From the NCBI GenBank assembly GCA_943354165.1, contig CALRBH010000005.1, positions 18 to 64,017 of the forward strand: a stretch of 64,000 nt of DNA, in the 5' to 3' direction. Made by a program: the position numbers and the translations under genes. Every line of letters begins with the position of its first letter. The first letter of the stretch is position 1. This document shows positions 25,253 to 58,188 of this stretch, one piece after another. Origin of the DNA: Candidatus Uhrbacteria bacterium RIFOXYB12_FULL_58_10 (GTDB lineage: Bacteria > Patescibacteriota > Patescibacteriia > UBA9934 > GWF2-40-263). The notes below the pieces were generated by a model. It ran no database searches, was not told the origin of the DNA, and worked only from the letters and a program-made list of their open reading frames with translations.

Positions 25253-25277
25253 TTGGGAGGGGTTGCCGTCCATGGCA

Positions 25278-26489
25278 TCAGCCTTGTATGACACGAACGA
25301 AGTGCCGCTTTCCTTTCTGGATGACGTTTCCATTTTCCGTCGGGGTGATCGACAAGTCGTAGCCCGAAACGACAACCTCATCGACTTTCACTCCCCCGCC
25401 ATCGATCAAACGGCGAGCTTCGCCGTTGCTTGTGGCGAGGCCGGTGCGGACGAGGGCGTCGATGATGCCGATGGAGCCCAGGATTTTGACCGTTGGGATT
25501 TCGGTTGGCATCGCATGGTCCTGGAAGAGCGCATTGAACGCTTTCTTGGCGGCCTTTGCCTTGGCGCGGCTGTAAAAGAAGGTGACGACTTCCTCGGCGA
25601 GGTGGGCCTTCACATCGCGTGGGTTGGCGCCGGTCGCAAGTTCGTCTTTGATGGCCGCGAGTTCGATCGCTGGGATCTCCGTGAGCAATTCGAAGCCTGG
25701 TTCGATCATGCCATCAGTCCAGCTCATCACCTTGCCGAACATTTCGTCTGGCGAATCCGCAAGCGTGATCATGTTCCCTTCGCTCTTCCCCATCTTCTTG
25801 CCGGTATTGTCGACGAGAAGCTTCGTGGTGAGGACGAATTTCTCCTTGTGCTTGATTTCCTTCATGAGCGTGCGGCCGGCAAGCATGTTGAACGTCTGAT
25901 CGTTCCCGCCGATTTCCCCATCGACATCCATAGCGACAGAATCGTAGCCCTGCATGAGGGGATAGAGGAATTCGTGGAGGTGGACTGGCTTTCCTTCTGC
26001 GACGCGCTTCTCAAACATGTCGCGTTCGAGCATTTGCTGGACGGTGTAATGCGAAGCGAGTTCGACGACGTTGCTGAACGACATCTTGCCGAGCCACTTA
26101 GAGTTGTACTTAAGCTCGGCCTTGTTCTCGCCGGAGAATTTAAGGATCTTCGATGCCTGCTTCTTGTAGTTCTTGGCATTCTCGAGAACCTGTTCGCGAG
26201 TGAGACGGACGCGAGTTGCCGACTTGTCGGTAGGATCGCCAATCATGGCGGTGAAATCGCCGATGAGGAGGATGATCTTGTGGCCGAGGTCCTGGAGCTC
26301 GCGCAGTTTCATGAGGACGATGGCGTTCCCCAAGTGGAGCGATGGGCCGGTTGGGTCGATGCCAAGGTAGATGGTGAGTTGTTTCCCTTCTACGAGGCGG
26401 GCGCGAACGAAATCGCGCGATGGGTACACGTTTTCCACTCCTCGAGTGAGGAGGGCGTCGATTTTGTGGGCGTCAGTAATAACGTTCAT
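25278..26489 (-). CDS. tyrS: Tyrosine--tRNA ligase
   Basis: It has HLGN (a HIGH variant), KMGKS and a C-terminal S4-like domain. The start is at MNVITDAHK, the internal Met of the longer ORF. Confidence 0.93.
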   Translation of the reverse strand: MNVITDAHKIDALLTRGVENVYPSRDFVRARLVEGKQLTIYLGIDPTGPSLHLGNAIVLMKLRELQDLGHKIILLIGDFTAMIGDPTDKSATRVRLTREQVLENAKNYKKQASKILKFSGENKAELKYNSKWLGKMSFSNVVELASHYTVQQMLERDMFEKRVAEGKPVHLHEFLYPLMQGYDSVAMDVDGEIGGNDQTFNMLAGRTLMKEIKHKEKFVLTTKLLVDNTGKKMGKSEGNMITLADSPDEMFGKVMSWTDGMIEPGFELLTEIPAIELAAIKDELATGANPRDVKAHLAEEVVTFFYSRAKAKAAKKAFNALFQDHAMPTEIPTVKILGSIGIIDALVRTGLATSNGEARRLIDGGGVKVDEVVVSGYDLSITPTENGNVIQKGKRHFVRVIQG

Positions 26490-29229: not shown

Positions 29230-29244
29230 GTCGGGCATAAGCGA

Positions 29245-29284
29245 GAGGTTTGGAAGGTTGGGGAGGTTCGGAAGGTTTGGAAGG
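29245..29284. repeat. W-family repeat just upstream of the valS start. If translated in the valS frame it would encode LPNLPNLPNL.
   Basis: gaggtttggaaggttggggaggttcggaaggtttggaagg. Confidence 0.8.
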
Positions 29285-29336
29285 ATGAGTTGAATCGGGT
29301 TTACTGTAGGGGAAATTGGGCTGGGGGGCAATATTG

Positions 29337-29361
29337 ATGTCATCACAAATTGTGATGACAT
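29337..29361. promoter_or_regulatory. Perfect 12-1-12 palindrome atgtcatcacaa-a-ttgtgatgacat (possible operator), with a second related palindrome at 29654..29678 (ctaaggtcacaa-t-ttgtgaccttag)
   Basis: Both palindromes share the core TCACAA-N-TTGTGA. One lies just downstream of the ORF6N gene stop and the other inside its coding region. Confidence 0.4.
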
Positions 29362-29365
29362 GGCG

Positions 29366-29905
29366 TCAACTTTTGAATCCGATTTCATCTTGTGATGAGT
29401 CTGGTTCGGAGAGAAGATGGCGCAGAGCCTCGAATACCGTGACGAACTGCTCGTCGTATGTCTTTTCCATCGCTTCTACTTTTTCAAGTAAGTCCTTATA
29501 ACCCTGGATCATTTCTCGCATTCTCGTAAATACACGGATGATCTGAATATTTACAAGAATCGCCCGCTCACTCTTTAGAACACTTGAAAGCATGGCAACG
29601 CCTTGCTCAGTAAAAGCCATTGGTCTCCAACGAAAATGTGTGGAGTCTTCGCCTAAGGTCACAATTTGTGACCTTAGATTTCTTGCTTCATACACAGTTA
29701 AAATGAACATAAAATCCTCCGGAAACCGTTCACTGTTTCGTTTCACTGCTTGCTTCAATACCTTCGTGGGCACGCCGTACAGTTCGGCTAAATCCGCATC
29801 CAACATCACCTTCCTCCCCCGAATCACGAAAATCCGTTGCTCAATCCTCTCCGACGGTACGAGCGACATATCCATACACGTAAAAAATAAAAACGCCTCC
29901 GGCAC
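29366..29905 (-). CDS. ORF6N (KilA-N-related) domain protein, typical of phage/mobile-element antirepressor-like genes. The region is locally AT-rich.
   Basis: RIFVIRGRKVMLDADLAELYGVPTKVLKQAVKRNSERFPEDFMFILT matches the ORF6N domain signature. The segment visibly has lower GC than its flanks. Confidence 0.7.
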   Translation of the reverse strand: MPEAFLFFTCMDMSLVPSERIEQRIFVIRGRKVMLDADLAELYGVPTKVLKQAVKRNSERFPEDFMFILTVYEARNLRSQIVTLGEDSTHFRWRPMAFTEQGVAMLSSVLKSERAILVNIQIIRVFTRMREMIQGYKDLLEKVEAMEKTYDEQFVTVFEALRHLLSEPDSSQDEIGFKS

Positions 29906-30069
29906 AAATGCGGGAGGCTACTTATGCAGGTATTAAACCTGATTTTTTCGTTTTTGTCAAACCTGAACATGCAGGCTTGACGCCTCTCAAATTGATCGCT
30001 AAGGTACGCCATTCCCATGCTTGTCTCTTACGGGGCCCTTACGCCCTGGAGGATACTCTTAGGCAACGC

Positions 30070-31206
30070 ATGCCCTTCAATAAGGCCCAACAAATCAGCG
30101 AAGCATTGAAGCGGAGTGCCTCTCCGGTGGTTTGCGTAGCTGAGGGGGCTGGGGCCGATGGATACGCCGCCGCACTTGGCCTTGCCCGCGCCCTCGGCAA
30201 GCTTGGCAAGAAAGTAGAGATCGTCGCAGCCGACGGGAAGACTCCATCCGTCCTCTCCTTCCTCGCAGGTGCCGACACCGTAAAAACTACCTTCGAACGC
30301 CTCCGCCGGTTCCGGATTGAACTCGATATTTCAAAGACTCCGGTGGACGGCCTTTCCTACGAATTGAAAAACCAGAAACTGCTCATTCACCTCGAACCTC
30401 GCCAGGGATCTTGGAAGAAGGAAGATGTGAAGATGGCCGCCTCGATGTACCGCCACGACCTCATCATCGTCCTCGGAGCTGCGGACTTTGAAGCGTGTGG
30501 GAAGCTCTACTCCGCGCATCCGGATTTCTTCACGCACACTCCCGTCCTCAACATCGATGTTCGCGCGGAGAACGAACATTTCGGTCATCTCAACGCTGTT
30601 GACCTTACGGCCTCCTCGCTTGGCGAAGCCTGTCTCGCGATCGTTGAATCGATGGACCCGTCGCTCGTCGACGAAGAGATGGCGACTGCCTTCCTCACCG
30701 GCATCATCGCCCGCACCCGTAGTTTCCGCGCCCGCACCGTGACACCGAAGCATCTCGAAGTAGCTGGAAAGCTTCTTGGAAAAGGAGCGAAGCGCGATAA
30801 GATCGTCGAGAACCTTTATCGCACTCGAACAGTCCCTACGCTCAAGCTTTGGGGCACCGCGCTTACCCGACTTAAGTCCGACGTAGCAACGAAACTCGTC
30901 TGGTGCGTCCTCACCCGCGCCGACTTTACGGCGGCTGGGACCGATGAACGCGAACTCGCCGACGTTGTCGACGAACTTATCACTTCGAGCCCTGACGCCC
31001 AGGTCATCGCCCTCTTCTATGAGGCGGCCGACGGGTCCATTCAGACCCTGGTCCGCGCCGAGCGCCCCCGCAACGCCGTTTCCCTCACAGAAAACTGGCA
31101 TGGCATCGGGACGCCGGAAGAGGCTCGTGTGAGCTTCAAGGGAAAGACGATTATTGATGTGGAACGCGAGGTCATCGCACAGATGAAAAAGACGCTGACT
31201 GCATAA
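30070..31206 (+). CDS. DHH/DHHA1 family phosphoesterase (NrnA-like), with DHH motifs partly degenerate
   Basis: It has DHHA1-like C-terminal motifs. The N-terminal region VVCVAEGAGADGYAAALGL lacks the canonical His residues. The ORF begins at 29908, and the start at 30070 (MPFNKAQ) is inferred from alignment with NrnA. Confidence 0.5.
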   Translation: MPFNKAQQISEALKRSASPVVCVAEGAGADGYAAALGLARALGKLGKKVEIVAADGKTPSVLSFLAGADTVKTTFERLRRFRIELDISKTPVDGLSYELKNQKLLIHLEPRQGSWKKEDVKMAASMYRHDLIIVLGAADFEACGKLYSAHPDFFTHTPVLNIDVRAENEHFGHLNAVDLTASSLGEACLAIVESMDPSLVDEEMATAFLTGIIARTRSFRARTVTPKHLEVAGKLLGKGAKRDKIVENLYRTRTVPTLKLWGTALTRLKSDVATKLVWCVLTRADFTAAGTDERELADVVDELITSSPDAQVIALFYEAADGSIQTLVRAERPRNAVSLTENWHGIGTPEEARVSFKGKTIIDVEREVIAQMKKTLTA

Positions 31207-31236
31207 AGCCGATCCTCGAGGGTCGGCTTTATTTCT
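31206..31236 (+). terminator. Rho-independent terminator
   Basis: aaagccgatcc-tcgag-ggtcggcttt is followed by atttc. Confidence 0.65.
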
Positions 31237-31253
31237 GGTACAATGCCCGCACT

Positions 31254-32603
31254 ATGAACGGAGGAGCCGAAGCCGTACGCGAAGCTCTTGGGCGCGATCA
31301 TGCGCTTGGGTTTGCGTTTCAGCTCATGAAGGATTGCTCCGATGCGGAGATATTCCTCGTTGGAGGGTTCGTGCGCGATGCCCTGCTTGGCCATCCGTCC
31401 AAGGATGCGGACTTTGTCGTACGCGGTATCAGCCAGGAAAAGCTCGAGGCTTGGCTCAGTGAGTATGGCGAGGTCGTGTTCGTCGGCCGCGCGTTTGGGG
31501 TCTACAAGTTCAAGCCATCGATCCATCCAGAACACGACGAAATCGACATTGCCCTGCCACGTACAGAGGTGCCGACTCAGGACAGCCTTGGCGGGTACCG
31601 GGATTTTTCGATGAAGTCCGATGCGATGCTTTCCATCGAGGACGATTTGGCTCGCCGGGACTTTACGATCAATGCCATCGCATACAACTTGAAGGACAAC
31701 ACGCTCGTTGATCCGTTTGGCGGACTCAAGGATCTCGAGGCGAAGATCTTACGCACCGTAGGCGAACCGAAGGATCGATTCGCCGAGGATCTTTCCCGTG
31801 TCCTTCGAGGGATCCGGTTCAGCGCCACCTTGGATTTCACGATCGAGGATGCAACCTGGTGGGCGATCAAGGACGCGGCCTCGCATATCAATCGCACGCG
31901 GGAGGTCGATGACAAAACCGTGTTCGTGGTTCCGCGCGAAACCGTGGGAACCGAGCTCGTGAAGGCGATCCATGCGAACCCGCACGCGTCTCTCAAGCAT
32001 CTGCACGACGCCGGGCTCATGCGTGAACTGTTTCCAGAGCTTGAGCACCTGGTGGTTCACTCCTCCTACCTCGACGTCCTCTCAAAGATGCACGCTGATG
32101 CCCCACCGGACGCCGTGTTCGCCGTTTTGCTGCGCGGCATTCCTACGGAACGCGTCGGCGCCCTGCTTCACCAGAGCGGACTCGACGCCCTGCCCCGCAC
32201 ACACCCGCTGCGCCTGCATGCGAACGACATCACTTGGATCGTCGCCACGCTCCAGGACGGACGCCCGGATCCAACGGCGCTCGTCGCCTGCGACTTCGAA
32301 CGCTTCTTCATGAACGAGCGTGCCCCCGCCTACCTCGCCGCCCTCACTGCACAAGGCCACGAGGACGAAGCGCGCCGCGCACGATTGCGAGCTGCAGAAA
32401 TCCGCGCGCGCTGGTGGGCCACGGACGATGAAAAGATCCCGCCGCTGGTCTCAGGAAACGACGCGACGAATCTAGGCCTGGCCCCTGGCCCCGCCGTTCG
32501 TCTGCTCCTCGATGCGATGCGCTCTGCGCAGCTCGAAGGCCAGGTGAAAAATCGCACGGCGGCGCTACACATGATGGAACAATTGATAAAGGAGATGGAA
32601 TAA
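31254..32603 (+). CDS. cca: CCA-adding tRNA nucleotidyltransferase (Pol-beta head domain type, no HD domain)
   Basis: The head motif is GGFVRDALLG..DADFVV, followed by RRDFTINAIAY and a C-terminal tRNA-binding body. Confidence 0.8.
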   Translation: MNGGAEAVREALGRDHALGFAFQLMKDCSDAEIFLVGGFVRDALLGHPSKDADFVVRGISQEKLEAWLSEYGEVVFVGRAFGVYKFKPSIHPEHDEIDIALPRTEVPTQDSLGGYRDFSMKSDAMLSIEDDLARRDFTINAIAYNLKDNTLVDPFGGLKDLEAKILRTVGEPKDRFAEDLSRVLRGIRFSATLDFTIEDATWWAIKDAASHINRTREVDDKTVFVVPRETVGTELVKAIHANPHASLKHLHDAGLMRELFPELEHLVVHSSYLDVLSKMHADAPPDAVFAVLLRGIPTERVGALLHQSGLDALPRTHPLRLHANDITWIVATLQDGRPDPTALVACDFERFFMNERAPAYLAALTAQGHEDEARRARLRAAEIRARWWATDDEKIPPLVSGNDATNLGLAPGPAVRLLLDAMRSAQLEGQVKNRTAALHMMEQLIKEME

Positions 32604-32605
32604 CA

Positions 32606-32634
32606 AAACCCGGTCACTGAGTGACCGGGTTTTG
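32606..32634. terminator. Bidirectional terminator hairpin
   Basis: aaaacccggtcac-tgag-tgaccgggtttt. Confidence 0.7.
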
Positions 32635-32635
32635 T

Positions 32636-32712
32636 GGTGGGCGGTACAAGGCTCGAACTTGTGACCTTCACAATGTCAATGTGACGCTCTAACCAACTGA
32701 GCTAACCGCCCA
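32636..32712 (-). tRNA. tRNA-Val (anticodon GAC), CCA encoded
   Basis: The reverse complement is GGGCGGTTAGCTCAGTTGGTTAGAGCGTCACATTGACATTGTGAAGGTCACAAGTTCGAGCCTTGTACCGCCCACCA. Confidence 0.9.
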
Positions 32713-34621: not shown

Positions 34622-34698
34622 GGGTCCGTAGCTCAGTTGGTTAGAGCGCCGAGCTTATACCTCGGTGGTCGATGGTTCGAGTCCATCCGGACCCACCA
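34622..34698 (+). tRNA. tRNA-Ile (anticodon TAT), an unusual UAU anticodon, CCA encoded
   Basis: GGGTCCGTAGCTCAGTTGGTTAGAGCGCCGAGCTTATACCTCGGTGGTCGATGGTTCGAGTCCATCCGGACCCACCA has a 7-bp acceptor stem, the anticodon stem CCGAG/CTCGG and the loop CTTATAC. Confidence 0.8.
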
Positions 34699-34709: not shown

Positions 34710-34889
34710 ATGCCATTTCTGCTTCTCGGAATAGTCAGCCTGGTCGCTGGACTCATCTTCCATCGGCTCGCAAAGAAAAATCATGACCACGACGGCGAGC
34801 TCGGTTCTACCGGACTCATCCTCGGCGGGATCCTTTTGATCGTCTTTTTTGGACTGTATTACCGGGTCGTGACGCTGTTTGGTAACTAA
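34710..34889 (+). CDS. Hypothetical small membrane protein (59 aa, 2 TM)
   Basis: MPFLLLGIVSLVAGLIFHRL...ILGGILLIVFFGLYY lies between tRNA-Ile and a TAGTAG hairpin. Confidence 0.35.
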   Translation: MPFLLLGIVSLVAGLIFHRLAKKNHDHDGELGSTGLILGGILLIVFFGLYYRVVTLFGN

Positions 34890-34898
34890 AGAACAAGA

Positions 34899-34997
34899 GT
34901 TAGTAGATAGTAGTAAGTAGTTAGTAGATAGTAGTAAGTAGTTAGTAGATTTTCCGTCGCACATCCCTACTAACTACTATCTACTAACTACTAACTC
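34899..34997. repeat. TAGTAG-family hairpin, copy T3 (left arm internally duplicated)
   Basis: gttagtagatagtagtaagtagttagtagatagtagtaagtagttagtagat, a loop, then tactaactactatctactaactactaactca. Confidence 0.85.
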
Positions 34998-46345: not shown

Positions 46346-46442
46346 TTCGACTCGCTGTTGCTCGCTCATGGTCTTTGACCATCGGAACGAATTTTTCAAA
46401 CTACTAACTACTTACTACAAACTACTAACTGTATTTTTTGCT

Positions 46443-49407: not shown

Positions 49408-49925
49408 GCGGTCCTGGGACGGCCGGACGGCTACGGTGGATCGCAAGATTCGCTGAGGAAAGTCCGAACACCCGTGGCATCGCAAGGTGCTACGCCAAGG
49501 AACGTCGCTAACGGCGACCGGGTATACCTGTGGGATGTAGAGGCGTTGGAGCAATTCACGCTTTTGGATCTCATAATAAGCCTAGGGAAAGTCTCCCCTG
49601 AAGATAGGACGGGGAGTGCGAAACCAGATCGAAAGGTCTGGGGACGTAGCCACAGAGACAATACTGACGGCCTTCGCGCAAGCCAGGCAGCTGCCTGGCA
49701 AGCATGGCCGCTCAAGGTGAAAAGTGAGGTGATGTGTCGCAAGACGCTGCACCTCTCCCTGCATGGTGACATGCAGGCGATGCAAACCCGTTCCGGTGCA
49801 AGAGCAAGTTTGGTAGCTCGCACGAGCCATGCAGCAATGTATGGACCAGAGAGATGGCCGTCTCCTGCGCACCTAACCCGTGCGGAGAAGACAAAATTCG
49901 GCTTACAGGCCGCTCCCAGGACAGC
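49408..49925 (+). ncRNA. rnpB: RNase P RNA (bacterial type A)
   Basis: The P4 strands GAGGAAAGTCCG and ACAAAATTCGGCTTACAGG are conserved, as are ACAGAGACAATAC..GGCC and AAGGTGAAAAGTG, which correspond to E. coli M1 CAACAGAGAGCAAACC and GGTAAGGGTGAAAGGGTG. P1 pairs GTCCTGGGA with TCCCAGGAC. A terminator follows. Confidence 0.85.
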
Positions 49926-49957
49926 TAAAACCCTCGCTTACCGCGGGGGTTTTTGCT
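49926..49957 (+). terminator. Rho-independent terminator after rnpB
   Basis: aaaaccctcgc-ttac-cgcgggggttttt. Confidence 0.65.
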
Positions 49958-49971
49958 ACCATACGCCTACT

Positions 49972-51393
49972 ATGAAGCGCTCAGAGCTATTCTTCACGAT
50001 CGTTCTCCTCCCCGTGGATCTGCTGGCCCTCATCGCGGCGTCTATTGCGGCGTTCCATTTGCGTCTGCACCCGTATTTCGTGAACCTCCGACCCGTCACC
50101 TTCGACCTCACCATCGAGAACTATCTTCCGGTAGCGACGCTCGTCTCCTTTGGGTGGATGGTCATCTTTGCCGTGAGCGGATTGTACGGCATGCGCCGGC
50201 GCGCGATGGCGACAGAGCTTACGCGCGTATTCCTTGCCTGCTCTGCCGGCATGGCCGGAGTGTTCTCCATTCTCTTCTTCTCCCGCACGCTTTTTGAATC
50301 GCGTTTCATCGCTGTCGCCGCATGGATCCTGGCAATCATTTTCGTCTGCGCGGCACGCATCGCGGTTCGTCTTGTCCAGCGCAGTCTCCTTTACGCCGGC
50401 ATCGGCGAACATAAGGTCGTCCTCATCGGCAACAGCCATTCCGGAGACGAGCTCGAGAAATTCTTCAAAGCCCGTCATCGGTTCGGCTTCCATGTCGCCG
50501 GTCATTTTCCTAAGTTCGATGAAGCCGCCCGCGAACACATCCATGCCCTCAAATCCAAGGACCAGGTCGATGAAATTTTCCTCGTCGATCCGGAAATGAG
50601 CCGAAAGGACGCCTTTGAGATCCTTTCGTTTACCGAAAACGAACACCTGGGCTTCCGCTACGTCGCCGATCTCTTTGCCGCGGCAGCCGGACGATCGATT
50701 ATCCATACGTTCACGGGGATTCCCGTCATCGAAGTACAGAAGACTCCCCTCGATGGTTGGGGCGCCATCTACAAGCGCATTTTCGACATCGTCGGATCGC
50801 TCGTTCTCATCATTGCAACCTTACCGATTCAAATCGTGGTCGCCATCGCCCTTTTCATCGAGAGTCCTGGGCGCGTATTCTTCTCCCGCCTTCCGAATGG
50901 CAAGAAAGTTCTGCGCATGGGCGGTTCAGGCCGGCCGTTCCACTACTTCAAGTTCCGTTCGATGATCAAGGACGCCCACCTGTTCCGATTCGATCCTGAC
51001 TTCGTAAAAAAGTACGGCAACCTTCGGGAAGGATCCCCCATGTTCAAACTCAAGGACGATCCGCGCGTCACCCGCGTAGGAAAGATCCTGCGCAAATACT
51101 CGCTCGATGAGCTGCCGGAGTTTTACCTCGTCCTGCTAGGCCGCATGTCGCTGGTCGGTCCACGCCCACATCTCCCGGAGGAGGTCGCTAACTACAAGCC
51201 GCACCAGCGCAAAGTGCTTACGATTAAGCCTGGAATCACCGGAATGGCCCAGATTAGCGGCCGTGCCGACCTTGACTTTGACGAAGAAGTCCGCCTAGAT
51301 GTGAGCTATATAGAGCGCTGGAGCCCATGGCTCGACCTCTACATCTTGCTCAAGACCCCCTTTGCTGTTTTGTTTAGAGGAGGGGCGTATTAA
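49972..51393 (+). CDS. Polyprenyl-phosphate sugar phosphotransferase (WbaP/CpsE-like bacterial sugar transferase)
   Basis: It has N-terminal TM helices and the C-terminal Bac_transf domain (..LDELPEFYLVLLGRMSLVGPRP..). The start is at MKRSELFF; the ORF 49474.. overlaps rnpB. Confidence 0.88.
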   Translation: MKRSELFFTIVLLPVDLLALIAASIAAFHLRLHPYFVNLRPVTFDLTIENYLPVATLVSFGWMVIFAVSGLYGMRRRAMATELTRVFLACSAGMAGVFSILFFSRTLFESRFIAVAAWILAIIFVCAARIAVRLVQRSLLYAGIGEHKVVLIGNSHSGDELEKFFKARHRFGFHVAGHFPKFDEAAREHIHALKSKDQVDEIFLVDPEMSRKDAFEILSFTENEHLGFRYVADLFAAAAGRSIIHTFTGIPVIEVQKTPLDGWGAIYKRIFDIVGSLVLIIATLPIQIVVAIALFIESPGRVFFSRLPNGKKVLRMGGSGRPFHYFKFRSMIKDAHLFRFDPDFVKKYGNLREGSPMFKLKDDPRVTRVGKILRKYSLDELPEFYLVLLGRMSLVGPRPHLPEEVANYKPHQRKVLTIKPGITGMAQISGRADLDFDEEVRLDVSYIERWSPWLDLYILLKTPFAVLFRGGAY

Positions 51394-51395
51394 AA

Positions 51396-51487
51396 GGGCT
51401 GTAAGGATGGTAAGGGCGGTAATGGACTGTAAGGGCGAAAGATCGAACCAACCCCTTACCATCCTTACAACCCTTACAGCCCTCACC
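51396..51487. repeat. GTAAGGG-family hairpin (G family) between wbaP and the GT4 gene
   Basis: gggctgtaaggatggtaagggcggtaatggactgtaagggcg pairs with ccccttaccatccttacaacccttacagccctcacc. Confidence 0.8.
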
Positions 51488-51501
51488 ACCCCACGATCCT
51501 C

Positions 51502-52587
51502 ATGAAACTCGCGATTGTCCACGACCACCTCGTCCAAGACGGGGGTGCGGAACAGGTGCTGCGGGTTCTCCAGGAAATCTGGCCCGAGGCACCCACCTAC
51601 ACCCTCGTTTTTGATGCGGCCAAAATGCCGTCGTTCAAGGACAAGGACATTCGATCTTCGTTCCTCCAGAAGCTCCCGTTCGCGAAGTCCCGCTACCAGT
51701 GGTACATCGCCCTCATGCCAACCGCTACGGAGTCCTACGACCTGCGGGAGTTCGATGTAGTGGTCTCGAGCTCGAGTGCATTCTCCAAAGGCATCATCAC
51801 GCGCCCTGGAGCCATTCACATCTGCTACTGCCACACGCCGACGCGTTACCTGTGGTCGGATTCCGTGAGCTATGTGAACGAGCTCAAGGTTCCAAAGCCG
51901 ATCAAGATGTTCCTGCCTCCCCTGCTCTCGATGCTGCGGGTTTGGGATCGCCATGCGGCAGATCGCGTCGACCATTTCATCGCGAATTCTGCGACGGTGA
52001 AGGAACGCATCAATAAATATTACGAAGCACCGAGCACTATCATCCATCCGCCGGTTGATGTGTCGAAGTTTGCGATTTCTGATGCGCCAAAGAGTTATTT
52101 CCTCGCTGGCGGACGACTCGTTCCGTACAAACGGTTCGACCTTGTGGTGCAGGCAGCCAATAAAACCGGCATTCCTGTGAAGATTTTCGGTTCTGGCCCT
52201 GCGGAGGCGGAGTTGAAGGCGATGGCCAAAGGGAACGTCGAATTTCTCGGTCGCGTTACGCTCGCCGAGCAGGCGAAGCTGTACGCGAACGCCAAGGCGT
52301 ACATTCATCCGCAGGAGGAAGACTTCGGGATGACGGCGGTTGAGTCGATGGCCGCGGGCCGGCCGGTGATTGCGTTCAATCGCGGTGGAGCGACAGAGAC
52401 GGTTGTTCCAGGCGTGACGGGAGAGTTCCTCGATGAGCAAAGTTGGGAAGAGCTTGCGGATCATCTCATTCGATTCGACAATGCGAAGTACGATCCAGCG
52501 GCGATCCGAACCCATGCGGAAAAGTTTTCTACGGAGCAATTTAAAGCCAAGCTCAAGGCGTTCGTCGAGGAGAAACTTCGGAAATAA
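51502..52587 (+). CDS. Glycosyltransferase family 4 (GT-B)
   Basis: It has the C-terminal GT4 EX7E region (..EDFGMTAVESMAAGRPVIA..). Confidence 0.85.
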   Translation: MKLAIVHDHLVQDGGAEQVLRVLQEIWPEAPTYTLVFDAAKMPSFKDKDIRSSFLQKLPFAKSRYQWYIALMPTATESYDLREFDVVVSSSSAFSKGIITRPGAIHICYCHTPTRYLWSDSVSYVNELKVPKPIKMFLPPLLSMLRVWDRHAADRVDHFIANSATVKERINKYYEAPSTIIHPPVDVSKFAISDAPKSYFLAGGRLVPYKRFDLVVQAANKTGIPVKIFGSGPAEAELKAMAKGNVEFLGRVTLAEQAKLYANAKAYIHPQEEDFGMTAVESMAAGRPVIAFNRGGATETVVPGVTGEFLDEQSWEELADHLIRFDNAKYDPAAIRTHAEKFSTEQFKAKLKAFVEEKLRK

Positions 52588-52590
52588 TCT

Positions 52591-53727
52591 GTGAACATTC
52601 TCATAGACATCCGACATCTTGGAGGAGGAACTCCGAGCGGAGTCGGTCAGTACGCGCGCGAACTTTTGCGTGCGCTTCTTCCGCTTGATCCGACCGTTTC
52701 GTACACGTTGCTTTCGACCGGCTTTCGAAAACCAACGCTTCCCTTTTCACTTCCGCTAAACGCAAAACACGTTCACATCCACGCGCCCAACCGGGCGTTG
52801 TTTGCGTCCATGGCGTTGGCATTTCCGAAGCTCGATAAGCTCGTAAAAGGCCGATTCGACGTAGTTTTCGTGCCGAATCTACATGTGACTCCCCTCTCGG
52901 CTGGAATCCCGATGGTCCTCACGATCCACGACGCGAGCTGGCTGGTAAATCCGTCCTGGTTTTCTCCAAAGACAAGGCTCTGGCACAAGATCGTCCGACC
53001 GAAAGTGCTCGTCGATCGCGCAACGCGATTGATCGTTCCGTCTGAAAGCACCGCGCGAGAAGCACAGGCTTTCCTTGGCGCTGACCCGTCGAAAATTCGT
53101 ATAATCCCACACGGCGTGGATCCGATCTTTTCGCCGAAGCCGACGCCACAGGATCACGGCGTGCGATCGCGCTTGAATCTTCCGAAGCGCTTCGCTCTCT
53201 TCCTTGGAACCATCGAAGCGCGTAAAAACGTCGACGGAATCATCGAGGCGGTCCGAATGTACCGCGAGAAGACCGGCGATCGACTCGAACTCGTTCTCGT
53301 GGGATCGAAAGGTTGGGGAAGTTTGGGAGGTTCGGAAGGTTTGGGAGGACGAAAGGATGAGTGGGTTACTCGTCTAGGTTACGTCCCCGACACTGACCGT
53401 CCGGCGCTCTACCGATTCGCGTCCGTGTTTCTTTTTTCATCTCACATGGAAGGGTTCGGCATGCCTGTCCTTGAGGCGATGGCGAGCGGGACGCCGGTCA
53501 TCACCAGTCCGCGCGGTGCGCTCCCGGAAGTTGCCGGTGACGCGGCGATGTATGCAGACCCAATCGACCCGAATCGCATCGAAATGTGCCTTGAGCAATT
53601 CTTCGGTAGCCAAGAGTTACAAGCGAAATTATCGGCGCGTGGATTGGAACGAGCGAAGGGGTTTGATTGGGGAGAGACCGCGCGAAAGACCTTGGAAACA
53701 TTGAGAGAAGCGGCTGGGCACGAATAG
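52591..53727 (+). CDS. Glycosyltransferase family 4 (GT-B), with an in-frame W-family repeat insertion
   Basis: EGFGMPVLEAMASGTPVI is present. The linker LVLVGSKGWGSLGGSEGLGGRKDE is encoded by the repeat at 53311..53348. Confidence 0.85.
   Translation: MNILIDIRHLGGGTPSGVGQYARELLRALLPLDPTVSYTLLSTGFRKPTLPFSLPLNAKHVHIHAPNRALFASMALAFPKLDKLVKGRFDVVFVPNLHVTPLSAGIPMVLTIHDASWLVNPSWFSPKTRLWHKIVRPKVLVDRATRLIVPSESTAREAQAFLGADPSKIRIIPHGVDPIFSPKPTPQDHGVRSRLNLPKRFALFLGTIEARKNVDGIIEAVRMYREKTGDRLELVLVGSKGWGSLGGSEGLGGRKDEWVTRLGYVPDTDRPALYRFASVFLFSSHMEGFGMPVLEAMASGTPVITSPRGALPEVAGDAAMYADPIDPNRIEMCLEQFFGSQELQAKLSARGLERAKGFDWGETARKTLETLREAAGHE
53311..53348. repeat. W-family repeat in-frame within the GT4 gene (encodes GWGSLGGSEGLGG)
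   Basis: ggttggggaagtttgggaggttcggaaggtttgggagg. Confidence 0.8.
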
Positions 53728-53741
53728 TAGTCAGAAATAAT

Positions 53742-53776
53742 GAGCACCCGGCAGACGAGCTGGGTGCTCTTTGTCT
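53742..53776 (+). terminator. Rho-independent terminator
   Basis: gagcaccc-ggcagacgagct-gggtgctc is followed by tttgtct. Confidence 0.65.
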
Positions 53777-53789
53777 ACGCGGGTGCGAT

Positions 53790-53969
53790 TCAGTTGTCGG
53801 TTTTGTTTTGACGTACCGTTCCAGTGAAGTACATCTTTTGGAAACGATCATTGATGTAGACCATTATCACCTCGTACTCCGTGGGGCCTCTTCCCTGCCA
53901 CCAGGTGTAGTGTTCTACTTCCTTTTCTCTGGTATCCCTGCTGTCGTCGCGACGCTCTTTTCTTGTCAT
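53790..53969 (-). CDS. Hypothetical small hydrophilic protein (59 aa)
   Basis: MTRKERRDDSRDTREKEVEHYTWWQGRGPTEYEVIMVYINDRFQKMYFTGTVRQNKTDN, with AGGAGG 11 nt upstream. It is the only plausible part of the long antisense ORF 53790..54689. Confidence 0.35.
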   Translation of the reverse strand: MTRKERRDDSRDTREKEVEHYTWWQGRGPTEYEVIMVYINDRFQKMYFTGTVRQNKTDN

Positions 53970-53995
53970 GGGCACGGAATCCTCCTGGAGCGCCA

Positions 53996-54259
53996 TCAGG
54001 TGATGATGAGTCGCTTGAAACGACGTGAGAGCCTGAAAGCTCGTTTGGCCAACAACCCAAAACTGAGTGCAGCGACAAAAAAGAACACGATGAGATAGAC
54101 AGGACTTTCGAGGAAATACTGCCGGACGGCGCCCACCAGCATTCCACCTGAAGCCACGACGTTTCCTATCGCCTGAAACAGGCGGAATCGACTCTCTGAT
54201 CTGTACTTCATGTTGAGCCTGTCCTGCATCTTGATAAGGACCCATCCAATCATATTCAC
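53996..54259 (-). CDS. Hypothetical small membrane protein (87 aa, 1-2 TM, basic C-terminus)
   Basis: It has a strong RBS, GGAGGTGAAT, immediately before the ATG, and a hydrophobic core PVYLIVFFFVAALSFGLL. Confidence 0.5.
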   Translation of the reverse strand: MNMIGWVLIKMQDRLNMKYRSESRFRLFQAIGNVVASGGMLVGAVRQYFLESPVYLIVFFFVAALSFGLLAKRAFRLSRRFKRLIIT

Positions 54260-54297
54260 CTCCGCCGAAGATCCTAAGCTTTTCCAATAGTTTTTTC

Positions 54298-54346
54298 AAC
54301 CCCAACCTCCCCAACCTTCCGAACTTCCCAAACCTCCCCAACCCCT
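54298..54346. repeat. W-family repeat (reverse orientation), intergenic upstream of the GT4 gene
   Basis: caaccccaacctccccaaccttccgaacttcccaaacctccccaacccc. Confidence 0.8.
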
Positions 54347-54368
54347 CGCGATTTGCTATACTGCCCGT

Positions 54369-55478
54369 ATGAAACTCGGCATTGATGCACGCATGTATGG
54401 GCCGCGCGTGGGGGGTGGGGGGATTGGGCGGTATGTCGAGGAGCTTGTGAAGCGCCTGGCACGCCGGTCTGATGGGATCCGCTACGTGCTGTTCGTGAAA
54501 CCAGAGGCCCGGGACCTGATCCCGAAGGCCGCCCACTTTGAGGTACGCGAGGCTGACATTCACTGGTATGGCGCCGCTGAACAGCTCCGGATGCCGGCGC
54601 TTATCGACAACGAAAAGCTCGATCTCGTCCATGTGCCGCACTGGAACGTGGCGATGCTGATGAAAACGCCATTTGTTGCGACGATTCACGACCTGATTTT
54701 GCTCGAAGAACCTCGCTCCGCCCGGGCAACGACTCTGCCTGCGGCGTTATATACACTGAAGTACCTCGCGTACCGTGCCGTTTTGCGCCAGGCTGTGGTA
54801 AAATCTCGTGGGATCATCGCTCCATCGCAGGCGGTAAAAGATTCGATTCTTTTTCACTTTTCGACTACGGACAACGCAAAGATCCAAGTGATCAACGAAG
54901 GGGTCACTGAGCTCCCTGCGCCAGCCGGAAATCTCCCTGCGTCACTTGCGGGCCATCCGTATTTCCTCTGCGTGGGCAACAGCTATCCGCACAAGAACCT
55001 TGGAATGGTTCTGAACGCTTTCGCCGCCTTTTTCCCGTTCCATCCGGAAACCAGACTCGTCTTTGCCGGCCGGAGGGACACGTTCCGCATGAGCCTCGAA
55101 GCAGACGTTGCAAAACTCGGCCTGCCGGAGGACGCCGTCGTCTTCATCGACAGTCCGTCGGACACGGAACTTTCGCTCCTGTACGCAAACACCACGCTCT
55201 ACTTGTTCCCTTCCCGCATCGAAGGGTTTGGCCTGCCGCCACTTGAGGCGTTGGCCGCCGGAGCACCTGTCGCCGTGTCCGACATTCCAGTACACAGGGA
55301 AATCCTCGGGGGCGCGGTAAAATATTTCTCCCCGAACGATCCAAAGGCCATCGCAAAGATCATGAGTGAATCTCTTACACGTTCTGTCACCCCGACTATC
55401 GACCCCCGACTACCGACTGCCTACTCGTGGGACAAGATGACCGAAGAAACCGTCGCGCTCTACAAAAAACTCGCTTAA
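54369..55478 (+). CDS. Glycosyltransferase family 4 (GT-B)
   Basis: EGFGLPPLEALAAGAPVAVS in a 369-aa protein. TATACT lies 8 nt upstream of the ATG. Confidence 0.85.
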   Translation: MKLGIDARMYGPRVGGGGIGRYVEELVKRLARRSDGIRYVLFVKPEARDLIPKAAHFEVREADIHWYGAAEQLRMPALIDNEKLDLVHVPHWNVAMLMKTPFVATIHDLILLEEPRSARATTLPAALYTLKYLAYRAVLRQAVVKSRGIIAPSQAVKDSILFHFSTTDNAKIQVINEGVTELPAPAGNLPASLAGHPYFLCVGNSYPHKNLGMVLNAFAAFFPFHPETRLVFAGRRDTFRMSLEADVAKLGLPEDAVVFIDSPSDTELSLLYANTTLYLFPSRIEGFGLPPLEALAAGAPVAVSDIPVHREILGGAVKYFSPNDPKAIAKIMSESLTRSVTPTIDPRLPTAYSWDKMTEETVALYKKLA

Positions 55479-55482
55479 ACGT

Positions 55483-58188
55483 ATGGAGGAGAACGGCCGC
55501 AACAATCCACGCATTATTGCTCGGGTAAACGAAACCGCGAGCGACTCGGCGCTTGAGAGGCTTTTGCGTACGCGCCGTTCGAGTCTCACCGCGGACAACT
55601 CGCTTCCAGGCGAGGTGCGGGCGCGCAGTCTGTTCCAGCCGGAGGAACAGGGACTTTTTCTTAAACGCACTTCACACAATCCCCTTTCCCCGCACATTCT
55701 CTCCCTGCGCGCGCCCGCCCAGGAGCCAGAGGCCTCGTTTGATGGCGTGAACATGCTGGATGGCGAAGTGGTAGAAATTGTAGAAGGCGTAGAAAATGGG
55801 CTTGGTTTGGATCGCGACGACCTTGCCGGACAGCTGCTTGAAGAAACCCTGCCGCTCATCGACACTTCAAAGACTTCTTTGCAATACGTAGAAATTGCCC
55901 TGCCGGATCTTGCTGGTTTCCGCCGCGAAGCCGAGCTCCTTGGACTGAATGCCTTGGAGGTTGCGCCGGATGGCGCAGACCTCTCCGTACTGGCGCCGGT
56001 TTCCATGCCAGAGCGGCTCGCAAACATGTTCGAACTCCCCGATGCCGATGAATCGGAGGGTGAGGAAGAAGACGTTCTCATCGAATTCGCCGGACACGAC
56101 GAAGGTGTCGTGACAATCGAAGAGGTTGGGGAAGTTTGGGATGTTCGGGAAGTTGAGGAGGAAATAAACCTTCCGAACCTACCAAACCTCCCCAACATCC
56201 CAAACCTTTCGTTTTGGCGCTTGCCGCAGCTCCGCACGCTCGGAGCGTTCGTTCTGCTTTCCTTCGCCATCGTTCTGCCGATTCATGCAATGAATGTGGC
56301 GGGAATTTGGGGGAATGCCAAAGACGCTGTGACGAAGCAAGGAGAAACCGGGGCGACGTTGCTTTCTTCCGGAGCCTCTTCCGCGCTTTCGCGTGATGCG
56401 TCTGAGGCGGCGCGTGCGTTTGGCAGCGCGCAGACGAGCTTTGCGCAGGCCCAGTCGTCCGTGTCGAATCTTGGCGTCGCGGCGAACGCGATCATTTCGG
56501 CATTGCCATCAGGATCGAAGGTGGCCTCTGCGAACGCCGTGCTTACGGCCGGTGAAGCTCTCTCGATTGCTGGCGGTCGCATCTCTGAAGGCATCGCTTC
56601 GCTTGGGAACGATCCGCTCGCGAGCCCAACGGACCGCATCGCGCTCTTGCAGGCGTACCTTGAAGGCGCGCTTCCTCACCTTGAGCGTGCGGAGGCAGCC
56701 ATCGCAAAGGTGGATGTACAAACCCTCCCACCAGAAAGCCAATCACGTTTCACCATCCTTCAACAATCCATTCCAAGCGTCGTCTCCGGGATCCGCGAGC
56801 TCATCGAAGTGACCGATGCGGCCTATGCCGTGCTTGGCGGAACCGGGACCAAGCGCTACCTCGCCATCTTCCAGAACAATACGGAAATTCGCCCAACAGG
56901 TGGGTTCATGGGGAGCTTCGCCGAGATGGATATTCGCAAAGGCGAGATCGCCAAGCTCACCATTCCGGGCGGCGGAACGTACGATCTGCGCGCGGGCGTC
57001 ATGAAGCCGTTCATTTCTCCGAAACCACTCAGACTCCTCTCCGCCGCATGGGAATTCCAGGACGCGAACTGGTTCCCAGACTTCCCTACGAGCGCGCGCC
57101 AGATCATGCAGTTCTATGAACATGCCGGACAACCAACGGTAGATGGGGTGATCGCCGTGAACGCCACGTTCGTCGCCTCCCTCCTCGATCTCCTTGGCTC
57201 CATAGAGATGCCGGAATACGGACGCACCATCGACAGCAAGAATTTCCTCCTCGAGACGCAGAAAATCGTAGAGAATGAATACGATCGCGACGAGAACAAG
57301 CCGAAGGCGTTCATCGGCGACCTCGCACCGAAACTTCTTGAGAAGGCTAAGGCGCTTCCGCCAGAAGGATTCCTCGCCTTCCTCGACACCTTGCAGCAAG
57401 GACTCTCTTCCCGCGACATCCAGATCTACTTCGATGATCAGGAGCTCCAGAAACAGGTGATTGAACGCGGATGGGGCGGCGAGCTCAAGTGGAGCGACGG
57501 CGATTACTTCATGGCCGTGGACACCAACCTCGGCGGCGGGAAAACAGACGGCGTCATCCAGCAGAAGATCGACATAAAGGTGAACATTGAGGCCGATGGA
57601 ACCGTTACGGACTCCGTCACGGTCACCCGCACGCACTTTGGCCAGCCAGGAAGCGACTTCTCCGGAGTGAACAACGTCGATTACCTGCGCTTATACGTTC
57701 CCAAAGGCAGTGAGCTTCTCTCAGCCGACGGGTTCTCCATTCCAGACGCCTCCCTCTTCGACGCTCCGATGACGGATTGGCTCATCGACGATGACTTGAT
57801 CTACGGATTGGACGGTGCAAAGACGGATGCGAAGAGCGGAACGGACATCTTCGAGGAATCCGGGAAGACCGTATTCGGCAACTGGATCCAAACGAAACCA
57901 GGCGCCACATCCACCGCACATTTCACCTATCGACTGCCGTTCAAGGTGGAGGTCGGGAAGGCGGATCCTACGCTCATCGACCGGCTGAAGACTTCCCTAG
58001 GGGTCCCAAACACCGGCCGCTACACACTCACCCTCCAGAAGCAGTCCGGGATCCTCGATCGCACCACGACCGTTCACCTTACCGCACCTGAAGCCTGGAA
58101 TCTCGCCTGGTCTTCGCATGAAACGGACGGCGTATCCTTCACCAACGCCATGGATTCATTCTTCGCTACCATCTTTGAACGCAACTAG
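55483..58188 (+). CDS. DUF4012 domain protein (membrane-anchored, cell-envelope glycan associated), carrying an in-frame W-family hairpin
   Basis: The 901-aa protein has an internal TM helix (LGAFVLLSFAIVLPI) and the DUF4012-like core (YLAIFQNNTEIRPTGGFMGSFA...DANWFPDFP). The region 56124..56211 encodes EVGEVWDVREVEEEINLPNLPNLPNIPNL. Confidence 0.7.
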   Translation: MEENGRNNPRIIARVNETASDSALERLLRTRRSSLTADNSLPGEVRARSLFQPEEQGLFLKRTSHNPLSPHILSLRAPAQEPEASFDGVNMLDGEVVEIVEGVENGLGLDRDDLAGQLLEETLPLIDTSKTSLQYVEIALPDLAGFRREAELLGLNALEVAPDGADLSVLAPVSMPERLANMFELPDADESEGEEEDVLIEFAGHDEGVVTIEEVGEVWDVREVEEEINLPNLPNLPNIPNLSFWRLPQLRTLGAFVLLSFAIVLPIHAMNVAGIWGNAKDAVTKQGETGATLLSSGASSALSRDASEAARAFGSAQTSFAQAQSSVSNLGVAANAIISALPSGSKVASANAVLTAGEALSIAGGRISEGIASLGNDPLASPTDRIALLQAYLEGALPHLERAEAAIAKVDVQTLPPESQSRFTILQQSIPSVVSGIRELIEVTDAAYAVLGGTGTKRYLAIFQNNTEIRPTGGFMGSFAEMDIRKGEIAKLTIPGGGTYDLRAGVMKPFISPKPLRLLSAAWEFQDANWFPDFPTSARQIMQFYEHAGQPTVDGVIAVNATFVASLLDLLGSIEMPEYGRTIDSKNFLLETQKIVENEYDRDENKPKAFIGDLAPKLLEKAKALPPEGFLAFLDTLQQGLSSRDIQIYFDDQELQKQVIERGWGGELKWSDGDYFMAVDTNLGGGKTDGVIQQKIDIKVNIEADGTVTDSVTVTRTHFGQPGSDFSGVNNVDYLRLYVPKGSELLSADGFSIPDASLFDAPMTDWLIDDDLIYGLDGAKTDAKSGTDIFEESGKTVFGNWIQTKPGATSTAHFTYRLPFKVEVGKADPTLIDRLKTSLGVPNTGRYTLTLQKQSGILDRTTTVHLTAPEAWNLAWSSHETDGVSFTNAMDSFFATIFERN
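56124..56211. repeat. Complete W-family hairpin (forward and reverse arms) embedded in-frame in the DUF4012 gene
   Basis: The forward arm ggttggggaagtttgggatgttcgggaagttgaggagg, then aaataaa, then the reverse arm ccttccgaacctaccaaacctccccaacatcccaaacctttcg. Both arms are translated. Confidence 0.8.

Follow-up and report, generated by a model that had tools for sequence, protein, structure and literature searches.

The DNA analysed here (the window) is a 64,000-nt stretch of Candidatus Uhrbacteria bacterium RIFOXYB12_FULL_58_10 with a GC content of 55.8%, and is a gap-closed version of the European Nucleotide Archive (ENA) scaffold MEHR18-3_SAMN08297413_METAG-scaffold_448 (66,001 bp). Its proteins find their best matches in Candidatus Uhrbacteria, a lineage of Patescibacteria. 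It carries a family of short periodic repeats, W, which occurs as six arms at five loci. These loci lie in and around valS, the gene for valyl-tRNA synthetase (ValRS), and within a gene cluster, the order of which is kept in other Uhrbacteria, for a sugar transferase (Pfam Bac_transf), the GT4 glycosyltransferases GT4a, GT4b, and GT4c, a DUF4012 protein, and a CLIPPER-domain protein. The three-unit pattern GTTNGGRARGTTNGGRARGTTNGG, scanned with up to two mismatches allowed, gave 15 matches in the window and none in 100 dinucleotide-preserving shuffles. An earlier note on this DNA had reported five copies, three of them inside open reading frames (ORFs); three W loci, in ValRS, the GT4b glycosyltransferase, and the DUF4012 protein, are indeed translated in frame, and the count becomes six arms at five loci.

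For valS, W1 (27900-27942, minus strand) is a single arm of four units, G-rich on the valS sense strand, which forms an in-frame 33-nt insertion encoding KVGKVGEVREV directly after VWYR of ValRS. W2 (29242-29288, plus strand) is also a single four-unit arm, and is C-rich on the valS sense strand. Alignment to 1GAX, together with the gene call, places the real valS start, MPDMPKAYE, at 29238, indicating that W2, which ends 3 nt before this ATG, is a non-coding leader. Therefore, of the two valS copies, only W1 lies inside the gene. The gene directly upstream of valS (29366-29905) encodes an ORF6N (KilA-N-like) domain, has no counterpart in the syntenic relative L126, and is possibly what is left of a mobile element.

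For the GT4b gene (ORF 52591-53727), W3 (53306-53352, plus strand) is a single arm consisting of CGAAAGG and four units, G-rich on the sense strand, and encodes (K)GWGSLGGSEGLGG. As the earlier note had described, the copy at 53311-53348, GGT TGG GGA AGT TTG GGA GGT TCG GAA GGT TTG GGA GG, translates as GWGSLGGSEGLG(G) in the frame of this ORF, within the stretch ...LVLVGSKGWGSLGGSEGLGGRKDEWVTRLGYV.... The reverse-orientation intergenic copy was likewise found, at 54297-54348: this arm, W4 (minus strand), is a single arm with five units, is C-rich on the plus strand and 88% complementary to W3, and ends 20 nt before the ATG of the GT4c gene (54369). The segment of ~640 bp between GT4b and GT4c (53728-54368) contains two minus-strand ORFs of 68 and 85 aa without a Pfam match, the longer of which looks membrane-protein-like; the corresponding gap in the syntenic loci L120 and L121 is only 79-129 nt. 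The inverted W3/W4 pair brackets this segment together with the 3' end of GT4b.

For the DUF4012 gene (55483-58188), both arms of a full hairpin are read in frame, again as had been claimed. The G-rich 5' arm, W5 (56119-56165, plus strand), encodes EVGEVWDVREVEEE, and the 3' arm, W6 (56169-56211, minus strand; C-rich on the plus strand), encodes LPNLPNLPNIPNLS immediately before a transmembrane helix; 56122-56211 is translated as EVGEVWDVREVEEE-IN-LPNLPNLPNIPNLS within the stretch ...TIEEVGEVWDVREVEEEINLPNLPNLPNIPNLSFW.... Overall, translation at the three loci runs in two frames of the G-rich strand (GW/GS/LG... and EVG/KVG...) and in a single C-rich-strand frame (LPN).

On the G-rich strand, a W arm mostly opens with a CGARAGG motif, which is CGAAAGG exactly in three of the six, and continues with four to five degenerate 9-nt units, RGTTBGGRA. 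The arms are 43-52 nt long, with a period of 9 nt, and the full W5/W6 hairpin is 93 nt. The variable fifth base was G in 11, T in 8, C in 6, and A in none of 25 units, and the avoidance of A at this position keeps all six frames of W clear of stop codons. Each arm contains exactly one C-type unit, and the unit order G,T,C is common to W3, W4, and W5. These results indicate that the arms share an ancestral sequence and are not random arrays. An origin of the unit from a tRNA T-arm (GGTTCGAA) was considered and dropped as unsupported.

The W5/W6 hairpin was predicted to fold with -40.3 kcal/mol as RNA (z -3.4, with none of 200 shuffles as good) and with -22.5 kcal/mol as DNA (z -3.8), its stem consisting of short helices broken at the variable unit positions. 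In contrast, single W arms gave 0 to -2 kcal/mol and folded no better than shuffles, and hairpin formation within W is limited to the DUF4012 pair. Thus, the term palindromic is wrong for the GT4 copy, the single arms being neither palindromic nor self-structured.

The independent Logan assembly SRR7054680_32801 is 100% identical to the window over 27258-32692, including W1 and W2, which excludes a chimera for these two arms. W3-W6 are contiguous in the single assembly that covers them, and lie about 700 nt or more from the sole gap of the ENA scaffold. This gap, at the GT4a/GT4b junction (52530-52599), is given as 100 N in the ENA record and as 70 real bases in the window; because of it, the public GT4b call starts late (305 aa) and GT4a is mis-called on the opposite strand. 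The window differs from the record in this closed gap and in one extra 85-bp unit, differences that reflect curation and not natural W variation. A perfect 85-bp tandem repeat of 3.3 copies occupies 17360-17636, and each of its units repeats 18 nt of the adjoining tRNA-Val (17299-17375).

In the proteins, the W peptides were absent from the homologues compared for ValRS, GT4b, and DUF4012. The nearest ValRS homologue, P0242 (70% identity; from the syntenic valS-tyrS-argS locus L126), reads VWYR-GEEVF (TAC CGC GGC GAA GAA), where the window ValRS reads VWYR-KVGKVGEVREV-GEETF (TAC CGA, the 33 nt, then GGG GAG GAA). Relative to P0242, the ValRS copy is a clean 33-nt insertion. Unrelated inserts occur at this point in several further Patescibacteria, indicating that it is a hot spot, and a 9-nt array is found elsewhere in the valS gene of L126. 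In the AlphaFold model of ValRS, the insert is a coil with a predicted local distance difference test (pLDDT) score of about 65, between strands 430-433 and 447-450.

For GT4b, the W peptide takes the place of the homologues' (G)WGWKSxxLRxRLWKRDxxxW in the alignment, column by column, with zero length gain. The length of this segment ranges from ~14 to >40 residues among homologues, the nearest of which is only 50% identical, and in seven Uhrbacteria homologues it holds a different insert, up to ~30 residues long. As DNA, this insert was read in one homologue (locus L120, 10779-10845), where it is a 7-nt-period hairpin, AAGGCAT/CCTTAAG. Residues 241-260 are the sole low-confidence part of the GT4b model (mean pLDDT 94) and fall between strands 233-237 and 259-263. 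The array is therefore inside the C-terminal Rossmann domain, and not in the inter-domain linker where the earlier note had placed it.

For DUF4012, the peptide encoded by the hairpin is part of a hypervariable acidic linker that directly precedes the transmembrane helix, in a protein of typical overall length; the nearest homologue (70%, P0122) is on a 2.5-kb contig that begins just after the hairpin site. For the arginyl-tRNA synthetase (ArgRS), the peptide of an array of a sister family (B4, described below) substitutes for GRAKRANAGDA of a relative, with a net gain of only two residues, immediately upstream of the anticodon-binding DALR region at the C terminus. In sequence comparison, the GT4b, ArgRS, and DUF4012 copies thus appear as occupations of variable surface segments with little net length change, not as simple insertions. 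The native sequence at the junctions is itself W-unit-like, namely GGGGAGGAA in valS and GGN TGG GGN TGG (GWGW codons) in GT4b.

Overall, a surface location of the sites is supported by the low-confidence surface segments in the predicted GT4b and ValRS models. Insertion without disruption, as the earlier note had it, agrees with the intact reading frames and the clean ValRS insertion, whereas the GT4 and DUF4012 copies occupy variable segments with little net gain in length. In these variable regions low complexity is common, and a perfect 18-nt tandem duplication inside B4 shows local slippage, so one could suppose that there is no element at all, only native low-complexity repeats, independent microsatellite expansions, or assembly artefacts. 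This is scarcely credible, since one 9-mer array, with an order of units that is partly shared and with most arms opening on a CGAAAGG-like motif, recurs in genes unrelated to each other, in three reading frames, on either strand, and outside coding DNA, while the homologues lack the peptides and the independent assembly reproduces W1 and W2 without a difference.

Inspection of all W flanks revealed neither target-site duplications nor unique terminal inverted repeats. The CGAAAGG direct repeat around W3 was rejected as a target duplication, as it spans 44 nt and its excision would break the frame. Among the genes of the window, no transposase domain was found. The earlier note had called the element selfish; that it is selfish and mobile stays, with transposase, terminal inverted repeats, and target duplication not found, an interpretation. 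The four single W arms can be grouped into two inverted pairs, separated by 957 and 1299 nt, a spacing with P about 0.001 under random placement.

At least three further periodic families accompany W in the window, and the periods are 7 and 9 nt. Family B has the 9-nt unit GTAAGGGNN, family A the 7-nt unit WAGTAGW / CTACTAA, and family D the 7-nt unit AAACGAC. For family B, B1 (11405-11457, plus strand) lies in the 41-nt groES-groEL spacer, is C-rich in the sense direction, abuts the groEL ATG, and is 94% complementary to B3. The B2/B3 hairpin (11748-11877; -60 kcal/mol, z -4.3) is upstream of groES. B4 (23734-23786, minus strand), the array with the 18-nt duplication, is in frame in argS (23469-25178) and encodes GKGGKGGKGGKG, and B5 (25167-25228, plus strand) is C-rich on the argS sense strand and abuts the argS ATG (25178). 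B4/B5 and B1/B3 are nearby inverted pairs, as in W. The B6/B7 hairpin (51383-51502; -52.6 kcal/mol, z -5.1) fills the spacer between the sugar-transferase gene and GT4a, which is 46-66 nt and array-free in syntenic relatives. The long ORF at 49474-51393 in front of this spacer crosses the class A RNase P RNA (49415-49922), which has 508 nt compared with a 367-position model and hence contains insertions; the real start of the sugar-transferase gene is at 49972.

For family A, the A1 hairpin (5700-5778) is between ksgA and the next gene, and the A2 hairpin (8248-8326) fills the entire prfA-epimerase spacer from stop codon to ATG. Over 79 nt, which take in the loop, A1 and A2 share 86% identity. 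The A3 hairpin (34887-34996) is upstream of a pseudouridine synthase gene, and the single arm A4 (46398-46430, plus strand), with CTACTAA on the sense strand, is upstream of the RNase J ATG. A5 (13012-13060, minus strand), a GTAGTTG-type array with the flanks GCGGAAAA/TTTTCCGC, is in frame in a Wzy_C gene (11895-13235) and encodes GKPQLPTTTYQLLF; the host gene product is O-antigen-ligase-like. The family D hairpin (20816-20929; -41.8 kcal/mol, z -5.2) is upstream of a histidine-kinase gene.

The hairpins of families A, B, and D gave z values of -4.3 to -6.2 against shuffles. CGAAAG was observed six times beside arrays, compared with 1.3 expected, and a GACGG..GAAAA motif is common to the A and B loops. 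Of the 35 intergenic gaps of at least 40 nt, 11 contain arrays, which make up ~21% of the intergenic DNA. Five in-ORF sites are present in the 64 kb (W1, W3, W5/W6, B4, and A5). All six frames are free of stops in W and five in B, and most are closed in A, so that the stop-codon content of each family fits where that family is found. An Rfam search yielded nothing in the array regions, its only matches in the window being RNase P RNA and tRNAs. Adenine mutagenesis in the style of diversity-generating retroelements was rejected: it fits the variable positions of W and not family B, and no reverse-transcriptase domain was present among the window genes.

These families raise the question of miniature transposable elements, of the MITE or repetitive extragenic palindrome (REP)/REPIN type, mobilised in trans by a REP-associated tyrosine transposase (RAYT) or an IS200/IS605 Y1 enzyme encoded elsewhere. 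Consistent with such elements are the several families with a full hairpin form, the copying of a whole hairpin (A1 and A2), the conserved motifs at arm ends and in loops (CGAAAGG in W and B, GACGG..GAAAA in A and B), the clean insertion in ValRS, and the richness of family A in GTAG, the tag of one REP superfamily (PMC3733652). However, transposase domains were not found in the 64 kb, the flanks lack target-site duplications and unique terminal inverted repeats, single arms are common and do not fold, three of four in-ORF sites are near length-neutral replacements, and the units vary in number and order in the manner of arrays prone to slippage. We regard these elements as a decidedly unlikely explanation.

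Formation of G-quadruplexes by the G-rich arms, in DNA or RNA, could in principle make the arrays regulatory or instability hot spots, a role put forward for the Xanthomonas and Nostoc heptamers, with the partner arms and in-ORF copies being secondary. The four to five units per arm would suit this, four being the preferred number for quadruplex-forming heptamers (PMC4692102), and as sequence motifs the canonical G3+ x4 was matched in B1, B3, B5, and W1, and G2+ x4 in the other W arms. Against this, families A and D are built and placed in the same way and yet lack G tracts, and the G-rich arm is predicted to be paired in the hairpins, which makes quadruplexes a very unlikely basis for the arrays.

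The arrays outside genes show a strict polarity relative to start codons. All five single intergenic arms (W2 at valS, W4 at GT4c, B1 at groEL, B5 at argS, and A4 at the RNase J gene) are pyrimidine-rich in the sense direction and lie 0-20 nt before an ATG. In addition, all seven hairpins have the purine-rich arm first, and the pyrimidine-rich arm is thus toward the downstream ATG. By a loose definition, a Shine-Dalgarno (SD)-like site was present in only 7 of 49 genes. The G content of the leaders is down to 16% over their final 10 nt, and T occupies position -1 in 31 of 39 genes (TATG). Examples of start codons are those at 8247, 11410, 25178, 29238, and 51502. Isolated units are few in the window (three for W, four for B), and none is upstream of a start codon. 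Accordingly, single W or B units were rejected as a general leader motif. SD site arrays were also rejected as the functional unit, families A and D not being SD-like, as were intrinsic terminators, the hairpins not being followed by T tracts.

This polarity bears on the main rival explanation, in which the arrays are functional cis-acting RNA: SD-independent ribosome landing sites or leader modules, REP-like hairpins for mRNA stabilisation or processing, or in-ORF arms that pair with the leader arm and gate translation. The proposed regulatory pairs are W2 with W1 in valS, B5 with B4 in argS, and B3 with B2 or B1 in groESL. The uniform orientation of the single arms just before ATG, in a nearly SD-free genome with G-poor leaders, is what such a role would produce, as are hairpins that exactly fill spacers of co-directional genes. 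Two adjacent aminoacyl-tRNA synthetase genes each have a leader arm and an in-frame complementary arm 1.3-1.4 kb downstream, with predicted duplexes of -72 and -54 kcal/mol, and the B3-B1 pairing (-60.5) beats that of B3 with its neighbour B2 (-43). The same layout occurs, with TAACTGA repeats, in the RNA polymerase beta' gene of Beggiatoa, for which a post-transcriptional network has been proposed (PMC4679880), and relatives carry different hairpins at the same intergenic sites.

Among other Uhrbacteria, at L120 1815-1909, an 8-nt-period hairpin (TGAGTCGC/CGACTCAA) abuts the RNase J ATG and is unrelated to A4 at the same site, and at L126 13957-14014 a GTAG-type mini-hairpin precedes argS. 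Conversely, the syntenic locus L121 has short array-free spacers where the window carries hairpins, and orthologous sites of relatives are array-free. Furthermore, isolated W and B units are rare and absent before start codons, most genes are array-free, highly expressed ones included, any two W arms pair almost equally well, and in compact genomes nearly all non-coding DNA adjoins a start, which makes placement alone weak evidence. These results suggest that a regulatory RNA function is unlikely as the primary explanation; it is nonetheless compatible with the explanation that we favour below.

W-like arrays are also found far outside this lineage. Among species-representative genomes, at least 118 W-like loci were found, compared with ~4 expected by chance (a rough estimate), in many phyla and with many purine-first hairpins. 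In metagenome-assembled genomes (MAGs) of Kiritimatiellaeota and Verrucomicrobia, W-like arrays are in frame in UvrA, CarB, Ddl, CoaBC, and a metallo-beta-lactamase-fold protein; the in-frame arrays and hairpins of this Planctomycetes-Verrucomicrobia-Chlamydiae (PVC) group are at L077 5530-5583, L047 2400-2441, L058 2991-3041, L032 4452-4688, and L075 4919-4960. Their peptides are of the GLEGLEG.../...QTSQTSRTS type, with GWGSLGG also present. High-GC W-like loci of other phyla are mostly open in some frame, so that a comparison of ORF enrichment says little. A leader arm with an in-ORF partner was rejected as a general rule, being absent at the PVC loci.

A scan of viral contigs gave 90 W-like loci, many of which carry a composite that is conserved and betaproteobacterial, in which (GGTTRGGAA)3 arms enclose a GC-rich core of alternating purines and pyrimidines. 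The order of this composite is a GGTTRGGAA-unit hairpin, (TTCCYAACC)3, a GC-rich core of ~70-100 nt (Z-DNA-like), (GGTTRGGAA)3, and a second hairpin. It occurs at L015, L036, L086, L094, and L111 in Betaproteobacteria and at L132, L133, L142, L159, L176, L193, and others in viruses, is often near viral contig ends, and looks iteron-like. Within the searches made, no close-relative contig with W itself was found, and a metagenome scan with a W-specific pattern gave one unrelated 67%-GC contig.

These results indicate that the array type is not lineage-specific. The earlier note had considered the element apparently undescribed for this lineage; in agreement, a literature search pairing 'Rickettsia palindromic' with Patescibacteria found no report of such elements in the Candidate Phyla Radiation (CPR). 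A bolder reading is that RGTTBGGRA arrays and their purine-first foldbacks are one cross-phylum class, spread by a specific agent, such as a repeat-binding or repeat-copying protein that is possibly phage-carried, which would place nearly the same 9-mer, free of stops, in leaders and in the permissive loops of housekeeping proteins. We give this reading little credence. If it were true, the proteins hit would include ValRS, GT4, and DUF4012 in Uhrbacteria and UvrA, CarB, Ddl, and CoaBC in the Kiritimatiellaeota and Verrucomicrobia MAGs, and the class may be related to the (GGTTRGGAA)3 composite of betaproteobacterial prophages.

By anatomy, the closest published classes are the G-rich short-period repeat pairs (PMC4692102) and the TAACTGA repeats (PMC4679880). 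Rehm et al. (2015; PMC4692102) described G-rich heptamers, GGGAATC in Xanthomonas and GGGGAYT in Nostoc (of the short tandemly repeated repetitive, STRR, type), in arrays of about four units. These arrays lie mostly between co-directional ORFs, with the G-rich strand antisense upstream of an ORF or sense after a stop, and coding regions contain disproportionately few of them; each Xanthomonas genome contains 70-75 convergent inverted pairs capable of forming stem-loops, and the G-rich strand can form quadruplexes. W resembles them in its four to five degenerate G-rich units per arm and, together with its sister families, in the polarity, which is seen in 5/5 single intergenic arms and 7/7 window hairpins, and in the convergent stem-loop pairs (W5/W6, B2/B3, B6/B7, A1-A3, and D fold with z -3.4 to -6.2). 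W differs in its period of 9 instead of 7 nt, in the lack of shared sequence, in its host (CPR compared with Gammaproteobacteria and Cyanobacteria), and in the translation of three of five W loci, in contrast to the coding under-representation of the heptamers.

MacGregor (2015; PMC4679880) described TAACTGA heptamers, direct repeats found in Beggiatoaceae, Cyanobacteria, and Bacteroidetes, which lie mostly in one orientation just upstream of starts that lack ribosome-binding sites, the largest class ending 1 nt upstream. In the opposite orientation, they are translatable and occur inside ORFs in variable regions, and their distribution over phyla is patchy, with no known transfer mechanism. 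One gene there has leader units and inverted in-ORF units, as valS and argS have here, and family A of the window (TAACTAC / TTACTAC) resembles TAACTGA / TTACTGA. In contrast to W, the TAACTGA repeats are direct and of 7 nt, with only one inverted pair reported in that genome, and a hairpin form is not described as typical.

REP sequences, bacterial interspersed mosaic elements (BIMEs), and REPINs with RAYT (PMC3116915, PMC2817692, and PMC3733652) are short repeats in several families per genome, with inverted-doublet hairpins and short tags. W and its sister families are similar in their intercistronic spacers, several families, and hairpins. However, REP units are imperfect palindromes of 20-40 nt and extragenic, whereas single W arms do not fold and three of five W loci are in ORFs; W starts with CGARAGG and not with a GTAG/CGTC tag (family A units do contain GTAG), and no RAYT gene was present among the called genes of the window. 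W is also unlike MITEs in that its flanks lack unique terminal inverted repeats and target-site duplications. In-frame palindromic repeats have been reported for Coxiella MITEs, too.

The earlier note had compared W with the Rickettsia palindromic elements (RPEs; Ogata et al., 2000), which are also mentioned in PMC1779305. RPEs are palindromic DNA of ~100-150 bp without a short internal period, not known outside Rickettsia, and are found in frame in protein genes, including essential ones, where they are translated and tolerated at the protein surface. W behaves in the same way, being in frame with the host ORF intact (W1, W3, and W5/W6) and encoding peptides at predicted surface segments (in the GT4b and ValRS models and the hypervariable linker of DUF4012). 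In anatomy, W is unlike RPEs, because its arms of 43-52 nt are 9-nt periodic tandem arrays rather than a unique palindrome, are often half elements, and are apparently unrelated in sequence. The likeness to RPEs is therefore behavioural only. Foldback (FB) transposons of Drosophila have inverted arms built of short degenerate tandem repeats. FB and Galileo (PMC3573991) share this feature with W as a structural analogy only, and differ in being eukaryotic, kilobase-scale, and transposase-dependent. In Borg elements (PMC9879509), in-ORF tandem repeats with unit lengths divisible by three encode low-complexity disordered segments, as the 3n units of W give low-complexity protein; unlike W, they are local direct repeats that arise per site, are neither dispersed nor inverted, and belong to archaeal extrachromosomal elements. 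Taken together, W is best supported as a member of the known short-period array and inverted-pair kind, with a 9-nt stop-free design and RPE-like behaviour, and is new as the 9-nt form of short-repeat classes known from other bacteria.

As an explanation for W, we consider it on balance probable that these are short non-autonomous dispersed repeats whose retention is decided by selection, and whose copying is homology-guided, with additional slippage. The arms would exist alone or as a foldback of a G-rich arm, a short loop, and a C-rich arm, and would colonise leaders and intercistronic spacers. Before starts, only the pyrimidine-rich, G-poor strand would be tolerated in the sense direction, matching the SD-free, G-poor leaders of this genome, and the polarity of the arrays would thus be caused by selection near start codons. 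Within genes, the survivors would be stop-free arrays of 3n period in permissive surface segments, where the translated copies form low-complexity surface loops; W copies would persist there because 9 nt is three codons and the units are stop-free.

New copies would arise by copy-and-paste from existing arrays, guided by homology or microhomology (template switching or gene conversion), while local slippage would add units; cut-and-paste transposition is not favoured. We infer homology-guided copying and slippage from the junction microhomology, the length-neutral replacements, the nearby inverted partners, the local duplication, and the absence of transposase, terminal inverted repeats, and target-site duplications. 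Whole hairpins also appear to be copied, as suggested by A1 and A2 with their 86% identity extending through the loop.

Several observations weigh against this explanation. Partner arms are not more alike than others, with similarities of 0.68-0.76 for the three partner pairs compared with 0.63-0.82 for non-partner pairs, and local template switching therefore lacks direct sequence support. Neither an empty/filled allele pair nor a recent insertion was seen, the relatives with DNA reaching no more than 70% protein identity, and many PVC in-ORF arms have no partner within the ~8 kb around each locus. The window covers 64 kb, and a transposase may be encoded elsewhere in the genome. The tight placement before starts, together with the leader/in-ORF pairs in valS and argS, could reflect function rather than tolerance. 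In addition, neutral spread with filtering does not explain a near-identical 9-mer in distant phyla and phage contigs, which hints at a specific generator or binding protein.

Other repeats and RNA genes of the window were also noted. A 46-nt repeat with a small GC-rich stem-loop occurs in the spacers before ksgA and sua5 (6569-6614 and 7229-7274, 93% identical). A 55-nt inverted repeat (12568-12622 and 25229-25283, 85% complementary) with CCTCCCC..GGGGAGG..GGAGGGG blocks resembles the class of G/C-rich intrastrand-triplex motifs (PMC4666352), and a similar block is found in the Acidobacteria locus L002. The tRNA-Ile at 34622-34698 has the anticodon UAU, which is unusual for bacteria.

In practice, the arrays break assemblies and mislead annotation, as the valS ORF call runs 50 codons too far upstream through W2, and they produce spurious 'conserved' low-complexity peptides shared by unrelated proteins. 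For the biology of the organism, about a fifth of the scarce intergenic DNA of a reduced CPR genome consists of periodic foldback repeats, which are tolerated even in the essential ValRS and ArgRS. The 9-nt stop-free design suggests a rule for entry into proteins, namely a 3n period that is open in all frames, making the arrays a ready source of new disordered loops. The strict polarity before starts in a near-SD-free genome offers a testable link to translation initiation or mRNA processing in Patescibacteria.

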